From Thermodesulfobacteriota bacterium (GTDB lineage Bacteria > Desulfobacterota > Desulfobacteria > Desulfobacterales > Desulfatirhabdiaceae): 64,000 nucleotides of DNA. Position numbers and translations under genes: made by a program. Shown one piece after another: positions 37,944 to 48,502 of the stretch. The stretch spans positions 4,180 to 68,179 of the forward strand of contig JBFMBE010000002.1 of the NCBI GenBank assembly GCA_040755275.1. The letters are read 5' to 3'. The first letter of the stretch is position 1. The number at the start of each line of letters is the position of its first letter. The notes beneath the pieces were generated by a model that worked only from the letters and a program-made list of their open reading frames with translations, was not told the origin of the DNA and searched no databases.

Positions 37944-40900
37944 TTAAGCGGCGCAAAAGAGGGCATGGGTCTTGGCGTTGATCTGTTCGTCCGTAAAATG
38001 CTTGAGGGTAATGGCCTTACCCGGACATTCGGAGGCGCACACCCCGCAACCATGGCATTCGACAGCCTCGATCACGGCATGACCTTTTTCCGGGTCGATC
38101 CGGGGTACACCATATGGGCAGGTACGTACACAGGTCAGGCATACCGCGCAGCGCTCGCCCTGAACCGCTGCCACAACGCTTCCCACCAGGATGCCTTGTT
38201 TCGATACGATGTTCATGGTTCGGGAAACGGCTGCCTTGGCCTGGGCGATGCTTTCATCGATCGTCTTGGGATAATGGGCGAGCCCGGCCAGAAAGAGGCC
38301 TTCGGAGGCAAAATCCACGGGCCGTAGCTTGGCATGTGCCTCCACCAGAAATCCATCGGCATTGGTCGGAACCTTGAACGCCTCGAAGAGTTTCTTGTTT
38401 TCATTGGCGATGATGGCTGCAGCCAATACCACGAGATCCGTCCGGATTTGGATCGGCCGGCCCAGAATGTGATCCGTCACGGTGACGGCAAGCGGAGAGA
38501 AGCCGCCTATCTGGGCATCTGCATCGAGGGTTTCAACGACCGGTGGCTTTTCCGGATCCCAGCGGATGAACTGGATGCCCGCTTCACGGGCTTTCTGGTA
38601 GAGCGATTCCCGAAAACCGTAGGATCGAATATCCCGATAGAGGATGAAGATGCGCATCTCTGGCTGGATGGCCTTGAGCCAGAGAGCGCTTTTCAGGGCA
38701 TGGGCGCAGCAGACCCGGCTGCAGTAAGGACGTTCGGACGTTCGGGAACCGACGCACTGGATGAACACCGCACTTTTCGCTTCGAGAAGCCTGGGGTCCC
38801 GATCCTTGGCCGCCTGGTCGAAATCGAGGTGGGTGAGAACATTCGGGTGCTTTCCATAAAGATATTCGGTTGGCTTGTATTCGTGGCCGCCCGTTGCCAG
38901 AATGGCTGCACCGTGCTGGAGGATCTTCTGAACGGCGGGTGCATCGCCGCTTTGGGTGACGATGGTCGTCGTGAAATTGCCGATGGTTCCGGTGACATGG
39001 GTGACCTCGGTTTCGAGGAAGACTTGGACGCGTTCGTTGTCCTCGACGTTCTGGATGAGCCGCTTCAGATAGGCTTCCACGTTTTCACCCTGCCAAGTCG
39101 ACTTGAGCTGATGGGCCATACCGCCCAACTGATTGCTGCGCTCGATGAGGTAGGCTTGATAGCCCTGGTTTGCCACGCCAAGGGCGGCTTCCATTCCAGC
39201 CACCCCGCCGCCGACGATCAGAACCGATGGCGTCACGCTCAGGATGACCTGCGGCAGTGGCTCGACGTAGGCCGCCTTCGCGACGGCCATGCGGACAAGG
39301 TCCTTGGCCTTGGCCGTGGCTTTTTGCGGAGTCGCCATGTGCACCCAGGTGTTCTGGTCCCGGATGTTGGCCATCTCGAAGAGGTATTTGTTCAACCCCG
39401 CTTCCCGGATGGTCTCCTGAAAGAGCGGTTCATGGGTTCGGGGGGAACAGGAGGCCACGACAACCCGGTTGATGCCCTTTTCGATCAGAACCTGTTTGAT
39501 CTTTTCCTGGGTGTCCTGGGAGCAGGTGAAGAGGTTGTCCTCGACGTGAACGACATGGGGCAAGGTTCTGGCGTATTCCCGGACTTCCGGTACGTTGGCC
39601 ACGCCGCCGATGTTGATCCCGCAATTGCAGACGAAGACCCCGATCCGGGGCGGTTCCGAAGAGAAATCCTTTTCGGGCGGCAGGTCTTTGACCTTGGTTT
39701 TCGTCCATCGGGCTTCGGAGAGATCGTGGGTGGCCTCTGCGGCGGCAGCCGATGCCTCCATGACGGACTGGGGAATGTCTTTTGGGGCCTGGAACGAGCC
39801 GCACACGTAAATGCCCGGTCTGCTGGTCGAAACGGGGGAAGTGTCGGAGGTCTTGATGAACCGGTATTCGTTCAGATCGAGGCCGAGACGTTCGGCCAAG
39901 TCCACGGCAGTCGCGGAAGGGGAGAGCCCGACCGAGAGCACGACGAGATCGAAGGTCTCTTCCTGGATATCGCCCGATTCGAGGACATATCGGATTTTGA
40001 GATCACCGTTATCCATCGGTTCGATGGTGTGTACGCGGGAGCGAATGAAGCGGACGTTCTTTTCGTCTTTGGCCCGCATGAAATATTTGTCGAAGTCCTT
40101 CCCGTAGGTGCGCATGTCCATGTAAAAGATGGCTGTGTCGAGCGGACTCGAGGCATGTTCCTTGGCGATGATGCTCTGCTTGATTGCGTACATGCAGCAC
40201 ACCGAAGAGCAATAGCCCCGCTCGGCCCGGTTGATGTCCCGGGAGCCCACACATTGCATCCAGGCGATTTTTTCGGGAATTTTCCGGTCGTAGGGCCGCA
40301 TCAAGTGGCCCTTGTATGGTCCCGATGCACTCAGAATCCGCTCGAACTCGAGGCTGGTGACGATGTTCGGGTGTTTGCCGTAGGCCAGGCTTTCGAGCCG
40401 TTTCGGATCGACCGTCGCACTTCCCATGGCGAGTACCACGGCCCCGACCTCGAGGGTGGTCTTCCGGGGCTCTTCGTCGTATTGAATGGCCTCGGCCAGA
40501 CAGACTTTCTCGCAGAGCCCGCATCCGATGCATACGGAGCGGTCGATGGCATAGGCGAGCGGGACGGCCTGGGGATAGCGGATGTAGGTGGCTTTCCTTA
40601 GATCGAGGCCGCAGTCGAATTCGTTGATGGCCGTCACCGGGCAGACCATGCGACACTGGCCGCAAGCCGTGCACTTGTCGATGTCGATGTATCGCGGGTC
40701 GTTTCGAAGCGTGACCTGAAAGGCGCCGACATTGCCTTCGACGGTTTCGACCTCGCTGTTCGAGATGATCTCGATGTTGAGGTGCCGCCCGACTTCGACC
40801 AGAAACGGGGAGATGACGCACATCGCGCAGTCGTTCGTCGGAAAGGTCTTGTCGAGCTGGGCCATCAGGCCGCCGACGGTTGTGGAATTGTCCACGAGAT

Positions 40901-41003
40901 AGACGTAGTAGCCGGCGTTGGCCATGTCGAGGGAGGCCTGGATACCGGCCACACCGGCGCCGACGACCATGACACTGCCGACGGGTGGTTGCTGTTGGGT
41001 CAT
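37944..41003 (-). CDS. hdrA: giant HdrA-like flavoprotein: N-terminal HdrA-like FAD/Fe-S module fused to a complete canonical HdrA module (copy 1)
   Basis: The track ORF is 37944..41009. I prefer ATG 41003 because of SD spacing. Two GxGxxG motifs ([26 protein letters not shown]). Two CxGSRD...YCSxVCC motifs. The HdrA N-domain motif [14 protein letters not shown] lies mid-protein. Inserted and C-terminal 2x[4Fe-4S] ferredoxin motifs. Confidence 0.9.
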   Translation of the reverse strand: [1019 protein letters not shown]

Positions 41004-48400: not shown

Positions 48401-48502
48401 CAGATATCCGGCATTGGCCAGATCCAGGGATGCCTGGATACCGCCGATGCCGCCGCCGACAACCAAGACGCTTCCGATAGGGGACTGCGGGGCTTCGACC
48501 AT
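45446..48502 (-). CDS. hdrA: giant double-module HdrA-like flavoprotein (copy 3)
   Basis: 1018 aa. The N-terminal third is very similar to copy 2 ([63 protein letters not shown]...). Same motif set as copies 1 and 2. Confidence 0.92.
   Translation of the reverse strand: [1018 protein letters not shown]

Follow-up and report, generated by a model that had tools for sequence, protein, structure and literature searches.

Three neighbouring fused double-module HdrA genes, conserved as a trio beside metVF in a Thermodesulfobacteriota genome

Results

Gene organization of the fused HdrA locus

The window, a 64,000-nucleotide stretch of contig JBFMBE010000002.1, comes from a sulfate-reducer-type genome and carries three intact minus-strand ORFs for fused HdrA proteins, here named copies 1 to 3. 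Listed in the direction of the genes, the locus contains:

50154..50699, minus strand: 181-aa ORF heading the cluster, function unassigned
48832..50139, minus strand: HdrD-like protein, 435 aa (Pfam Fer4_8 and CCG)
48503..48831, minus strand: non-coding leader 5' of copy 3, with inverted repeat I2 and direct repeat D15
45446..48502, minus strand: copy 3, fused double-module HdrA, 1018 aa
44924..45445, minus strand: gap between copies 3 and 2, 522 bp, non-coding, with repeats I4, I5, D14 and D15
41867..44941, minus strand: copy 2, fused double-module HdrA, 1024-aa ORF
41025..41780, minus strand: long MvhD-type [2Fe-2S] adaptor, 251 aa (Pfam FlpD, residues 11-133)
37944..41009, minus strand: copy 1, fused double-module HdrA, 1021 aa
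37476..37925, minus strand: short MvhD/VhuD-type adaptor, 149 aa (Pfam FlpD 7.9e-51; NCBIfam VhuD 8.6e-47)
36805..37479, minus strand: MetV, ~224 aa from an internal Met (Pfam DUF5981, 'MTHFR C-terminal', 8.6e-33)
35877..36812, minus strand: MetF, methylene-tetrahydrofolate reductase catalytic subunit, 311 aa (Pfam MTHFR 4.6e-41; NCBIfam matches)
32013..35842, minus strand: FdhA (Tat signal, Cys-type) and FdhB (TIGR01553, FDH-beta, TAT_signal)

An earlier note on this DNA had given the three ORFs as 1018-1024 aa with two HdrA-like FAD modules each, and its coordinates are exact. It had also placed them three in a row; they are indeed neighbours, but copies 2 and 1 are separated by a 251-aa MvhD gene and copies 3 and 2 by the 522-bp gap. 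The probable start of copy 2 is Met7 (position 44923), which follows a GGAAAGGA ribosome-binding site; translation from there would yield 1018 aa.

The 181-aa ORF had no match in Pfam or NCBIfam; a gene of equal length, 181 aa, occupies the equivalent position in two related genomes, L084 and L085 (identity 87-89%, dN/dS 0.14-0.15). The HdrD-like protein is an HdrC/HdrB-type fusion of a 2x[4Fe-4S] and a CCG domain, nearest to TmcB/HmcF/DsrK in NCBIfam (TmcB 3.8e-49, HmcF 7e-49 and DsrK 7.5e-32, all under cutoffs), and its gene has a dN/dS of 0.017-0.027. The copy 3 leader, which can be aligned with that of copy 2, contains a 19-nt motif twice and a long imperfect hairpin; an 84-aa ORF called within it gave no match in a Pfam search and is probably not a gene. 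None of the frames checked in the gap between copies 3 and 2 is coding. The gap contains a perfect 32-nt palindrome, a GC-rich hairpin and one more copy of the motif, and the equivalent spacer measures 298 bp in L084 and 41 bp in L085. With its hairpins and repeated motifs, the gap could split transcription units in this genome.

Copy 1 is followed by mvhD, metV and metF with overlaps or gaps of at most 20 bp, the start of MetV overlapping the mvhD stop. MetV orthologues have 220-224 aa, and metF shows a dN/dS of 0.027-0.037. The earlier note had not mentioned this metVF setting. FdhA, which scores 1458 against TIGR01553 (cutoff 814), and FdhB lie directly 3' of metF at spacings of ~35-75 bp; their membership in the metF unit is uncertain, and they are missing 3' of metF in the related loci L081-L083.

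Domain architecture of the fused HdrA proteins

Each ORF matches HdrA models in three stretches (E-values 1e-285 to 1e-297), with scores under the curated NCBIfam cutoffs for HdrA and HdrA2 in copies 1-3. Every chain has two GxGxxG FAD domains, two CxGSR...YCSxxCC motifs, a mid-protein IGVFVCxCGxNI N-domain motif and a C-terminal 2x[4Fe-4S] ferredoxin, all located where the earlier note had put them. Searches of the PDB with phmmer matched aa 13-378 to HdrA residues 154-518, aa 446-624 to 4-182 and aa 883-1016 to 520-651. Pfam/NCBIfam maps, phmmer and alignment agree that the N-module is HdrA-related, as had been proposed.

Both modules were aligned by MAFFT to HdrA of PDB 8rvu. By sequence, the N-module (~aa 10-445) is a thioredoxin-reductase-like FAD domain with a redox cysteine pair, D-C61-x-M-C64, in which C64 corresponds to Cys197 of methanogen HdrA, together with the flavin-N5 lysine (K277) and an HA4-type [4Fe-4S] site; the one inserted 2x[4Fe-4S] ferredoxin of the chain is also found there. 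The C-module, from ~aa 446 to the C-terminus, provides the HdrA N-domain cluster, the C-terminal 2x[4Fe-4S] ferredoxin and a second FAD domain that has an HA4-type cluster too. In the same alignment, the second FAD domain lacks the DCxMC cysteine pair and the inserted ferredoxin, and the N-module lacks the HdrA N-domain and the C-terminal ferredoxin. The halves are complementary and neither is complete; each protein would represent one single-chain HdrA pseudo-dimer, with 2 FAD and 7 [4Fe-4S] as predicted cofactors.

All 28 cluster cysteines and the N-module lysine are invariant among 105 aligned family members, as is the N-module cysteine pair among those in which that segment was recovered. 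The corresponding lysine position of the C-module is K (Lys773) in copy 1, Q in copy 2 and D in copy 3, and varies across the family. A confident AlphaFold2 model of copy 1 (pLDDT 78.7, pTM 0.82) has HdrA chains as its best PDB matches, with target TM-scores of 0.77-0.78 and query TM-scores of at most 0.51. These matches cover only half of the model, so no solved chain spans both modules. Structural alignments of the model gave 33-41% identity to canonical HdrA structures.

Gene conversion and divergence of the three copies

Overall identity is 61% between copies 2 and 3 and 52% to copy 1. The earlier note had called copies 2 and 3 close relatives, which these values bear out in part, but the closeness was overstated, as the excess is confined to the N-module. 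The N-modules of copies 2 and 3 are 72% identical; their C-modules are 53.5% identical, about equal to either against copy 1 (~50-54% among C-modules). The excess similarity comes largely from a gene-conversion tract:

48263..48547, minus strand: copy 3 side, ~45 nt of leader and codons 1-80
44684..44968, minus strand: copy 2 side, leader and first ~80 codons

Within the tract, copies 2 and 3 share 89-97% of nucleotides and 80-92% of third positions; third-position identity outside it is 10-57%. Such tracts are present in all three genomes (this one, L084 and L085). The L085 tract is 100% identical, which could be a metagenome assembly artefact.

Phylogenies of the two modules were run separately, a check that the earlier note had suggested. 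The C-module trees separate three clades, c1, c2 and c3, in 30 of 30 bootstraps, with copies 1, 2 and 3 in the clade of the same number, and the N-module trees fail to separate c2 from c3. Repeated gene conversion keeps copies 2 and 3 alike in their 5' part, whereas their C-modules remain distinct. The three copies are old paralogues, ancient lineages placed side by side, and not recent duplicates.

Conservation and genomic context of the clades

The whole trio is retained in L084 and L085 and conserved across genomes at dS 0.5-1.3. Every copy is under strong purifying selection, with dN/dS of 0.049-0.057 for copy 1, 0.076-0.10 for copy 2 and 0.063-0.073 for copy 3; the possibility of decay raised by the earlier note is thus answered by three intact, selected genes. 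Copy 3 is 100% identical to P0121 from a Thermodesulfobacteriota MAG.

The clades keep different company. Genes of clade c1 precede mvhD-metV-metF, and metF lies within 3.5 kb downstream at 13 of 17 c1 loci and at none of the c2 or c3 loci (0 of 11 for c3). Genes of clade c2 precede a long MvhD and a copy 1 gene. The long MvhD consists of the FlpD domain and a ~115-aa C-terminal extension and belongs to a large, conserved group of ~251-252-aa proteins, several with winged-helix Pfam matches; it stands between c2 and c1 genes in relatives as well. The order c2 gene, long MvhD, c1 gene was found in 9 of the first 83 loci and additionally in L084 and L085, which makes it a tight unit in 11 Desulfobacterota loci. 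Loci of Dehalococcoidia and Bathyarchaeia have analogous fused-HdrA pairs that are unclassified, and some relatives have split versions, an N-module gene followed by a C-module gene.

Elsewhere (L083, L087) the neighbours of clade c3 genes are Flx-like NAD(P)H modules and DsrC rather than metF, which suggests that copy 3 may serve a different reaction. At these loci the c3 gene is followed by genes for MvhD, two ferredoxin-like proteins, an FAD/NAD-binding DHODB-type protein and DsrC; no Flx-like genes lie within the window. The earlier note had favoured functional differentiation over simple dosage, and this is supported.

Comparison with described HdrA systems

The closest published description is that of BamE, the fused HdrA dimer of class II benzoyl-CoA reductase from Geobacter metallireducens, reported in a cryo-EM preprint (bioRxiv 10.64898/2026.04.10.717634). 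There, TrxR1 holds the bifurcating FAD with Lys280 and Cys59-Cys62, TrxR2 holds a non-bifurcating FAD with Gln768, the clusters are numbered E1-E7, BamD is HdrD-like, and BamF is long with a winged helix. BamE was absent from the PDB set searched by sequence and structure, so the comparison uses its published description. Copies 1-3 share with it the single-chain fused HdrA dimer, an identical domain order, seven [4Fe-4S] sites, the cysteine pair (here C61/C64), the N5 lysine (here K277) and a second FAD in TrxR2; genes for an HdrD-like partner and for a long MvhD-type adaptor extended by a winged helix lie nearby. In contrast to the Bam system, the locus comes without the BamBC tungsten enzyme and BamGHI and is linked to MetVF instead; it has three paralogues rather than one, and its BamF-like adaptor has Cys in place of the reported Sec.

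The gene context resembles that of the Moorella thermoacetica MetFV-HdrABC-MvhD enzyme. As Mock et al. 2014 is relayed in PMC5861303 and PMC9012536, MetF, MetV, MvhD and a 2-FAD HdrA are encoded together there, with two fused HdrA domains, complementary loss of Cys197 and the N-domain, and a Wood-Ljungdahl context. A pseudo-dimer arrangement has been noted for this HdrA, as for the fused HdrAs of ANME (PMC9012536, PMC5861303); Chadwick et al. describe the complementary loss in fused HdrAs including the Moorella enzyme, and Buckel and Thauer list '2 FAD in HdrA' for it. Set against those accounts of the Moorella enzyme, our locus has a fused HdrD-like protein 8 kb upstream rather than adjacent HdrB and HdrC, two more fused HdrA paralogues and a second, long MvhD, and its host, of a sulfate-reducer lineage, probably runs the enzyme oxidatively.

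HdrL of Desulfobacterium autotrophicum HRM2 and other sulfate reducers (PMC2702500, PMC5947623) shares the fused double-HdrA scaffold and precedes mvhD. Proteins of the HdrL type (~1480 aa) fall inside clades c1 and c2 at equivalent gene positions; only they carry a ~470-aa GltD-like NAD(P)H/FAD module between the two cluster motifs of the inserted ferredoxin. The earlier comparison with HdrL therefore holds for the scaffold but not for this module, which is missing in copies 1-3 (no match to PF14691). Copies 1-3 have all four domain types and all cofactor motifs of the canonical HdrA of MvhADG-HdrABC and related methanogen complexes (PDB 5odc, 8rvu, 7bkb), but the methanogen protein is a homodimer of ~650-aa chains with every domain twice, whereas each chain here has two FAD domains and a single N-domain, inserted ferredoxin, C-terminal ferredoxin and cysteine pair. 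ANME HdrA3/4 (fused) and HdrA5/6 (tandem) follow the same asymmetric 'own heterodimer partner' principle, with the order reversed in HdrA3/4, where the N-domain unit comes first and the Cys197 unit second (PMC9012536). The FlxABCD-HdrABC NADH:DsrC/ferredoxin system of Desulfovibrio is related through the copy 3 orthologues elsewhere, but its HdrA is single-module.

Discussion

We favour, with a probability of roughly 0.6, the reading that the locus encodes three BamE-type fused HdrAs, with copy 1 working in an Hdr-linked MetVF system and copies 2 and 3 serving as further modules. The trio likely functions as an HdrA-type bifurcating or confurcating methylene-THF reductase system.

Each gene would write an HdrA dimer as one polypeptide. 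The electron path proposed for copies 1-3 is carried over by alignment from BamE and the methanogen HdrA structures. By this analogy, the C-terminal ferredoxin would receive electrons from an MvhD-type [2Fe-2S] adaptor, and the N-module FAD would bifurcate them or, in reverse, confurcate. The high-potential electron would leave through the N-module [4Fe-4S] cluster to an HdrBC/HdrD-type subunit, and the low-potential electron would reach ferredoxin by way of the N-domain cluster and the inserted ferredoxin. The C-module FAD would be mainly structural, although a purely structural role is less certain for copy 1, which keeps the C-module N5 lysine.

From gene context, copy 1 with the short MvhD, MetV and MetF would constitute an Hdr-linked (Moorella-type) methylene-THF reductase / methyl-THF dehydrogenase, belonging to the Wood-Ljungdahl pathway of a Desulfatirhabdium-like sulfate reducer. 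In this MetVF-linked system, copy 2 and the long MvhD would make up a second module, itself conserved, and copy 3 with the HdrD-like (TmcB/DsrK-like) protein may supply or share the high-potential branch, probably directed to DsrC. Copies 2 and 3 may thereby use a common, interchangeable bifurcating N-module, kept alike by gene conversion, with their C-modules specialised as the adaptor- and partner-docking half. Against this reading, no separate HdrB or HdrC genes adjoin metVF, unlike in Moorella and some Desulfobacterota relatives, and the only CCG protein lies 8 kb upstream.

One possible but doubtful alternative is that the trio comprises three separate enzymes, each in its own complex with different donors and acceptors, and neighbours only through shared regulation or history. 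Copy 1 would then partner MetFV; copy 2 another protein, through the long MvhD; and copy 3 HdrD/DsrC or a Flx-like module encoded at another locus. The three old clades with their different usual neighbours fit this, as do the usual absence of metF and the Flx-like genes and DsrC of L087 and L083 around c3, the hairpin- and motif-bearing 522-bp gap that parts copy 3 from copy 2, and the relative L081 (81% identity to copy 1), which holds only c2 and c1 at the locus. However, the trio order is kept in three genomes, in one of which the gap between copies 3 and 2 shrinks to 41 bp; L083 likewise groups c1, c2 and c3 around metVF, in a different order; the c2-long MvhD-c1 unit is tight across Desulfobacterota, with analogous pairs in other phyla; and only one HdrD-like gene is present for the three HdrAs.

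It is improbable, and already contradicted, that each chain consists of a full canonical HdrA preceded by an additional FAD module, with six flavins in the trio that could bifurcate. Such a layout, described in the earlier note, fits the two FAD-binding folds per chain and the N5 lysine in the C-module of copy 1. The extra module is HdrA-related, but the alignment leaves neither half a complete HdrA: the C-terminal part lacks the inserted ferredoxin and the DCxMC pair, and the halves are complementary parts of one pseudo-dimer. The C-module lysine is replaced in copies 2 and 3 and variable family-wide, and the second FAD of BamE is reported as non-bifurcating. Six FADs are indeed predicted for the trio, but if BamE is taken as the model, the hallmarks of bifurcation are limited to the three N-module flavins.

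We consider it very unlikely that the cluster is a class II benzoyl-CoA reductase (BamDEF) module or remnant for aromatic ring reduction, with the HdrD-like protein as BamD, a fused HdrA as BamE and the long MvhD as BamF. The domain architectures fit the published BamE, BamD and BamF, and the relatives include Desulfobacterium sp. N47-type organisms, but no genes for a tungsten AOR-type BamB, BamC or BamGHI lie in or adjoining the cluster, the sole NuoF-like gene is 13 kb off on the opposite strand, metV-metF follow directly instead, and clade c1 is tied to metF.

A recent tandem duplication that raised dosage and left one or two copies decaying into pseudogenes could draw on copies 2 and 3 being nearly identical at their 5' ends and in their leaders, but is refuted at the sequence level by intact ORFs with every cofactor ligand retained, dN/dS of 0.05-0.10, C-modules of separate old clades and the persistence of the trio across genomes.

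Together, our results suggest that the metVF (Wood-Ljungdahl) context accounts for most of the functional explanation of the trio. The protein type has already been described; what is new is that the trio is conserved and that one half has repeatedly been copied between two of its members.

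Three fused HdrA proteins encoded in one gene cluster

The minus strand of the window carries a cluster with three genes for fused double-module HdrA proteins, copies 1, 2 and 3. The earlier note had placed three tandem paralogues of ~1020 aa at 37944-48502, and the ORFs are present at exactly those coordinates, all on the minus strand.

Features of the hdr cluster (window coordinates)
50154-50699, minus: 181-aa ORF (orf181) at the cluster head, no family match
48832-50139, minus: HdrD-like protein, 435 aa, with 2x[4Fe-4S] and a CCG domain
45446-48502, minus: copy 3, ORF of 1018 aa
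41867-44941, minus: copy 2, ORF of 1024 aa
37944-41009, minus: copy 1, ORF of 1021 aa
32013-35842, minus: FdhA (Tat, formate dehydrogenase-N type) and FdhB, 3' of metF after a short gap
44984-45002, minus; 48683-48701, minus; 48806-48824, plus: single sites of a 19-nt motif
45290-45321, both strands: a pair of the 19-nt motif forming a perfect 32-nt palindrome
51232-51250, minus: weaker match to the 19-nt motif

The most probable start codon of copy 2 is Met7 (position 44923), which is preceded by a GGAAAGGA ribosome-binding site and yields a protein of 1018 aa. Its orthologue in L084, one of two loci from close relatives with the whole trio (L084 and L085), is 1018 aa long, the same length as copy 2 counted from Met7. 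The NCBIfam HdrA and HdrA2 models match all three copies in three separate stretches with E-values of 1e-285 to 1e-297, and chance is not an issue. The whole-protein scores lie under the curated cutoffs of these equivalog models, at 949-989 for HdrA2 (cutoff 1100) and 701-747 for HdrA (cutoff 1400). Copy 1 is 94% identical to a protein of Desulfatirhabdium, which is placed in Desulfobacterales, family Desulfatirhabdiaceae, and copy 3 is 100% identical to a protein of a Thermodesulfobacteriota MAG.

Each chain is a pair of complementary HdrA modules

Pfam finds two FAD regions per chain, with Pyr_redox_2/FAD_oxidored matches at ~aa 11-430 and ~aa 595-940, and 4Fe-4S ferredoxin motifs at two places only, ~aa 105-180 and ~aa 945-1005. 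Within each copy, the N- and C-terminal FAD domains share 31-36% identity. A phmmer comparison with PDB sequences divides copy 1 into three segments.

Segments of copy 1 matched to HdrA
aa 13-378: HdrA 154-518, FAD domain with inserted ferredoxin
aa 446-624: HdrA 4-182, N-domain and start of the FAD domain
aa 883-1016: HdrA 520-651, end of the FAD domain and C-terminal ferredoxin

We then aligned both modules of all copies with the HdrA of Methanothermobacter marburgensis (PDB 8rvu), whose sequence was reassembled from printed alignments. The N-module (~aa 10-445 in copy 1) contains a GxGxxG motif, the Cys pair D-C61-x-M-C64, the eight cysteines of an inserted ferredoxin and the motif C253-x-GSRD...Y-C267-S-x-V-C271-C272-MYAI-K277; it has neither the HdrA N-domain nor the C-terminal ferredoxin. 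The Cys pair, C253/C267/C271/C272, K277 and the eight ferredoxin cysteines align in all three copies, and C64 corresponds to Cys197 in 5odc numbering, with the offset taken from the phmmer alignment. The C-module (~aa 446 to the end) carries the N-domain cysteines C461, C463, C496 and C521, a second GxGxxG FAD domain, a second CxGSR...CSRxCC site and a C-terminal 2x[4Fe-4S] ferredoxin. In this second FAD domain the Cys-pair positions are occupied by non-cysteine residues and the inserted ferredoxin is cleanly deleted. At the position of the N5 lysine, copy 1 has K773, copy 2 has Q and copy 3 has D. From this domain and ligand complement, each chain is predicted to bind 2 FAD and 7 [4Fe-4S] clusters.

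The finding of the earlier note is thus real and well observed, and its domain description needs one correction. It took each ORF to end in a complete canonical HdrA, which the alignment to 8rvu contradicts, since the C-module has lost the Cys pair and the inserted ferredoxin. The alignment, with the K/Q/D variation at the lysine position, also speaks against reading the six flavin sites predicted there as six bifurcating flavins.

For copy 1, AlphaFold2 yields an overall confident model (mean pLDDT 78.7, pTM 0.82), whose best PDB matches in Foldseek are HdrA chains with target TM-scores of 0.77-0.78. The same search found no solved chain in the PDB that spans more than about half of the model (query TM-score <=0.51).

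Across 105 aligned fused HdrAs, the window copies included, the N-module lysine and every one of the 28 cluster cysteines are conserved without exception, and so is the Cys pair in those sequences in which its segment was recovered. The same alignment shows a variable residue (K, Q, D, E, S or L) at the lysine position of the C-module.

In 50 related fused HdrA genes, about half of the relatives, an in-frame TGA lies at the second Cys of DCxMC, the Cys197 equivalent. Gene callers cut these genes into pieces of ~60 aa and ~940 aa, and from their sequences the encoded proteins (L002, L004-L006, L008, L009 and ~45 other loci) are probable selenoproteins. The window proteins have Cys rather than Sec at this position (C64 in copy 1, C69 in copy 2, C63 in copy 3).

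Organization of the cluster and its surroundings

The gene order along the minus strand is orf181, HdrD-like, copy 3, copy 2, long MvhD, copy 1, MvhD, MetV, MetF, FdhA, FdhB. Non-coding DNA separates the HdrD-like gene from copy 3 (330 bp) and copy 3 from copy 2 (~505-522 bp); from copy 2 through metF all gaps are below 90 bp, and copy 1, mvhD, metV and metF overlap or lie <=20 bp apart. MetV is ~224 aa when counted from an internal Met, and its start overlaps the mvhD stop. The orf181 product keeps its position and length in L084 and L085, with 87-89% identity and a dN/dS of 0.14-0.15.

The HdrD-like protein is most similar to TmcB, HmcF and DsrK among NCBIfam models. The cluster has no separate hdrB or hdrC genes, this fused CCG protein upstream of copy 3 being the single one of its kind; in some relatives, the interval from mvhD to metV contains split HdrD-like genes (~245 + ~135 aa). 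Two MvhD proteins are encoded. The short one (149 aa) lies 3' of copy 1, and the long one (251 aa), between copy 2 and copy 1, is one of a large and well-conserved family with lengths of ~251-252 aa, in which Pfam detects a winged helix in the C-terminal extension of several proteins. The N-terminal CxxC of the window long MvhD has Cys, and some relatives' long MvhD genes look Sec-split. The FdhA/FdhB pair 3' of metF was not found in L081-L083, three related loci.

The FdhA motif HQARLCHSSTV has Cys rather than Sec at what we take, by the position in FdnG, to be the active site.

We also considered an MvhD gene, perhaps interrupted by Sec, in the gap between copies 3 and 2; all three minus-strand frames are broken there and contain nothing MvhD-like. 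At 0-2 mismatches, the 19-nt motif TTGCGAGGCCATCATCGAT has five sites, all confined to the non-coding DNA of the hdr cluster, against a chance expectation of 0.04. It may be an operator or a structured leader, and no Rfam family matches it. Its 14-nt core is absent from the first 83 related loci, so a conserved operator cannot be claimed. A permissive Rfam scan of 35000-51500 for known RNA families returned only chance-level miRNA and snoRNA matches. An 84-aa ORF between the HdrD-like gene and copy 3 (48566-48820, minus) has no family match, and its region overlaps an imperfect hairpin with 62-nt arms and a block that shares 95% identity with a stretch of the copy 3-copy 2 gap; it is probably non-coding.

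The genes directly 5' of the cluster (51336-59721, minus) encode a PAS/histidine-kinase/receiver hybrid (658 aa) and, as a chemotaxis-type set, CheC/CheX-like, CheB, CheR and a 990-aa PAS and HEAT-repeat protein. At 1123-3870 (minus), a 526-aa multihaem class III cytochrome c is encoded beside a Fer4_11 iron-sulfur protein, possibly as part of a Tmc/Hmc-like transmembrane redox complex. A 615-aa NuoF/HydB-like protein (61753-63600, plus) combines a 2Fe-2S thioredoxin-like domain with an FMN/NADH site and 4Fe-4S motifs and is of the subunit type of BamH/HydB confurcating modules; its gene, at the window edge, is 13 kb away from the hdr cluster.

The three copies belong to three clades with distinct neighbourhoods

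A scan of contigs from one genome per species yielded at least 80 loci with fused HdrAs, a biased sample. The matches listed came from Desulfobacterota, Dehalococcoidia, Desulforudis, Bathyarchaeia, Thermoplasmatota and Promethearchaeota and were without the closest genomes; L084 and L085 were reached through a homologue search with copy 3. Split forms, with an N-module gene followed by a C-module gene, occur in several lineages.

In a neighbour-joining tree of 105 fused HdrAs, the window copies fall into three separate clades, c1, c2 and c3, which hold copies 1, 2 and 3, respectively. Each clade is recovered in 30 of 30 bootstraps, both with the full alignment and with the C-module alone. Separate trees of the two modules had been proposed in the earlier note, and they differ: the C-module resolves the three clades, and the N-module does not split c2 from c3 (0/30 bootstraps). 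Judged from the sequences, the three copies are old paralogues.

The clades differ in gene neighbourhood. Genes of the c1 clade are followed by mvhD-metV-metF, and among the loci listed metF lies <=3.5 kb downstream in 13/17 c1, 0/10 c2 and 0/11 c3 cases. A c2 gene followed by a long MvhD gene and a c1 gene was observed in 9 of the first 83 loci listed, and also in L084 and L085. Fused-HdrA pairs that remain unclassified, some of them flanking a long MvhD gene, were found in Dehalococcoidia (L011) and Bathyarchaeia (L043 and L060). Among the loci listed, c3-clade genes are mostly away from metF. Three Flx-like genes, for two ferredoxin-like proteins and a FAD/NAD-binding DHODB-type protein, come after the c3 gene in a Desulfosudis oleivorans MAG (L087) and a Desulfobacterium sp. 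(L083). Both loci also have a gene for MvhD close by, and L087 then continues with a DsrC gene.

Two fused HdrAs are present in 15 and three in 2 of the first 83 loci listed, counts that are lower bounds, with many loci on short contigs. In L083, genes of c2 (in HdrL form), c1 and c3 are grouped around metVF in another order, with a fourth fused HdrA close by. L081, whose protein is 81% identical to copy 1, has only HdrD-like, c2, long MvhD, c1, MvhD, MetV and MetF. L084 and L085 (92% and 88% identity to copy 3) have the exact order of the window from the 181-aa ORF through metF, and the trio is therefore a conserved feature of the lineage. The copy 3-copy 2 gap is 298 bp in L084 and 41 bp in L085, which argues for co-transcription in the latter.

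Purifying selection and probable recurrent gene conversion

Decay of the copies, a prospect raised in the earlier note, was not borne out. Measured against L084 (dS 0.50-0.59), dN/dS is 0.049 for copy 1, 0.076 for copy 2 and 0.073 for copy 3, compared with 0.037 for MetF and 0.064 for the short MvhD, and the cofactor ligands are intact. L085 was also used; L081 was set aside in favour of these two because its dS of 1.4-1.6 brings synonymous sites near saturation. The sequences exclude a reading of the copies as decaying or dosage duplicates.

Copies 2 and 3 had been described as close relatives, too strong a term for whole proteins of 61% identity (versus 52% for copy 1 with either); their N-modules are 72% identical and their C-modules 53.5%. 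A codon-wise scan locates a shared tract from ~45 nt 5' of the start codon to codon ~80, with a nucleotide identity of 89-97% and a third-position identity of 80-92%, versus 10-57% in the remaining gene; identity is still somewhat raised to codon ~260. A like tract covers codons 1-80 of the orthologues in L084. In L085 (13096-16146 versus 10001-13054), codons 43-282 are 100% identical in nucleotides and identity then falls to 52-68%; the tract ends just past the HA4 motif and K277. It could be a very recent conversion or a short-read metagenome assembly artefact.

Because such a tract is seen independently in the window, L084 and L085, and N-module trees leave c2 and c3 mixed, we read the mosaic of copies 2 and 3 as the probable outcome of recurrent gene conversion, which would keep the bifurcating, HdrD-docking half alike while the adaptor- or partner-facing C-modules stay distinct. 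The mixing in the N-module trees we likewise read as conversion or recombination combined with low signal, and not as evidence of orthology.

Comparison with known systems

The closest described architecture is BamE of class II benzoyl-CoA reductase, reported from cryo-EM as 'a fused HdrA dimer' with a domain permutation (bioRxiv 10.64898/2026.04.10.717634). In BamE, the bifurcating FAD is bound by the N-terminal TrxR1, with Lys280 at N5 and a redox-active Cys59-Cys62, the second FAD in TrxR2 is non-bifurcating, with Gln768, and the clusters are E1-E7 (bioRxiv 10.64898/2026.04.10.717634). By sequence, the window copies are of this type, with two FAD domains, the Cys pair, N5 lysine and inserted ferredoxin in the first, and a complementary second unit. 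Compared with BamE, known here by description, the residue numbers of copy 1 (C61/C64, K277) lie within three positions. Where the second FAD of BamE has Gln in place of Lys, copy 2 has Q and copy 3 D, whereas copy 1 keeps K773. The accompanying subunits are BamD, which is HdrD-like and on the high-potential branch, and BamF, an MvhD-type adaptor more than 100 aa longer than usual with a winged helix (bioRxiv 10.64898/2026.04.10.717634). The window long MvhD, with its winged-helix-bearing relatives, agrees with the published description of BamF.

These likenesses raise the possibility that the cluster is a BamDEF-type aromatic reductase. This is unlikely because BamBC and BamGHI are missing and the cluster is linked to metVF: Pfam finds no AOR-family protein (BamB) among the larger window ORFs, and no BamB-, BamC- or BamGHI-like genes were found near the hdr cluster, the sole NuoF-like gene (61753-63600) being on the other strand.

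The metVF link is shared with Moorella, whose MetFV-HdrABC-MvhD complex has '2 FAD in HdrA' (Buckel and Thauer, PMC5861303) and an HdrA stated to be of the fused kind (PMC9012536). In the window, too, metF and metV neighbour mvhD and an hdrA of the two-FAD kind. HdrAs, fused or in tandem, that have lost Cys197 and the N-domain in complementary fashion were described by Chadwick et al. (PMC9012536).

HdrL of Desulfobacterium autotrophicum is an HdrA/glutamate-synthase-type fusion with an NADH site, and tandem hdrL/hdrA genes were already reported there (PMC2702500). The name HdrL-type, used earlier for the window proteins, fits their scaffold but not their content: Pfam finds in copies 1-3 no match to PF14691 or a GltD-type domain, the module that defines HdrL (Strittmatter et al. 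2009). HdrL-type relatives of ~1480-1510 aa (L003:1004-5461, L083:4672-9192, L001:4573-9099) consist of a fused HdrA and a ~470-aa GltD-like NAD(P)H/FAD module, which splits the inserted ferredoxin between its two [4Fe-4S] motifs, in the presumed low-potential exit branch; the remainder is collinear with the window proteins. They are present in both the c1 and c2 clades.

A model for the cluster

With domain and ligand complement, gene neighbourhood, its conservation and purifying selection observed, we propose a likely model for electron flow by homology to BamE and methanogen HdrA. Electrons would pass from the [2Fe-2S] of MvhD to the C-terminal ferredoxin of a fused HdrA, and the N-module FAD would be the site of bifurcation or confurcation. 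The high-potential branch would run through the N-module [4Fe-4S] to the CCG protein. Electrons of the low-potential branch would reach ferredoxin by way of the Cys pair, the N-domain cluster and the inserted ferredoxin. For the C-module FAD the model has a structural role, which is less certain for copy 1, where the lysine is kept.

Gene context suggests that copy 1, MvhD and MetVF form an Hdr-linked methylene-THF reductase, which in a complete oxidiser would probably operate as a methyl-THF dehydrogenase, and that copy 2 and the long MvhD are a conserved partner module of the copy 1 system. In related genomes where the c1 or c2 protein is an HdrL, this suggests NAD(P)H as co-substrate. For the high-potential partner, the TmcB/DsrK-like protein in the cluster suggests DsrC or a similar disulfide.

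How these parts assemble allows two readings. It is tempting to speculate, at a probability of about one in four, that the products from orf181 to MetF form one soluble supercomplex in which two or three different fused-HdrA pseudo-dimers are wired together. Its core could be heteromeric, with different paralogues bridged by an HdrD-like dimer and the two MvhD adaptors, in contrast to the BamE/HdrA cores known to date, which are homodimeric. Such an assembly would couple several HdrA-type bifurcation sites and link methyl-THF oxidation to the reduction of both ferredoxin and DsrC. Gene conversion would leave the HdrD-docking N-modules of copies 2 and 3 interchangeable, with the C-modules diverging for different adaptors. 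A serious alternative, though less likely than not, is that the copies form separate isoenzyme complexes, one per copy.

Implications

The locus represents a known kind of system. Earlier publications already cover the architecture of the protein, the MetFV link and multiple HdrA copies beside Wood-Ljungdahl genes in Desulfobacterota. New are the decomposition into three clades, the recurring c2-long MvhD-c1 arrangement and the recognition of HdrL as an insertion variant of the fused-HdrA scaffold, as well as the conservation of the trio in this lineage and the recurrent N-module conversion.

The methyl-THF/methylene-THF couple lies at about -200 mV, and complete-oxidising sulfate reducers must handle it. 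How they do so energetically is an open point of Wood-Ljungdahl bioenergetics, and even for the Moorella enzyme the second substrate is still unknown (PMC5861303). Our analysis indicates that the MetVF-linked HdrA of this lineage is of the BamE type and is accompanied by a conserved second fused HdrA, by a third in this lineage, and by two different MvhD adaptors and a DsrK/TmcB-like subunit. The locus thereby supplies a concrete list of subunits to purify or to express heterologously, and copies 2 and 3, with a homogenised bifurcating half and divergent docking halves, suggest which part of a fused HdrA sets partner specificity.
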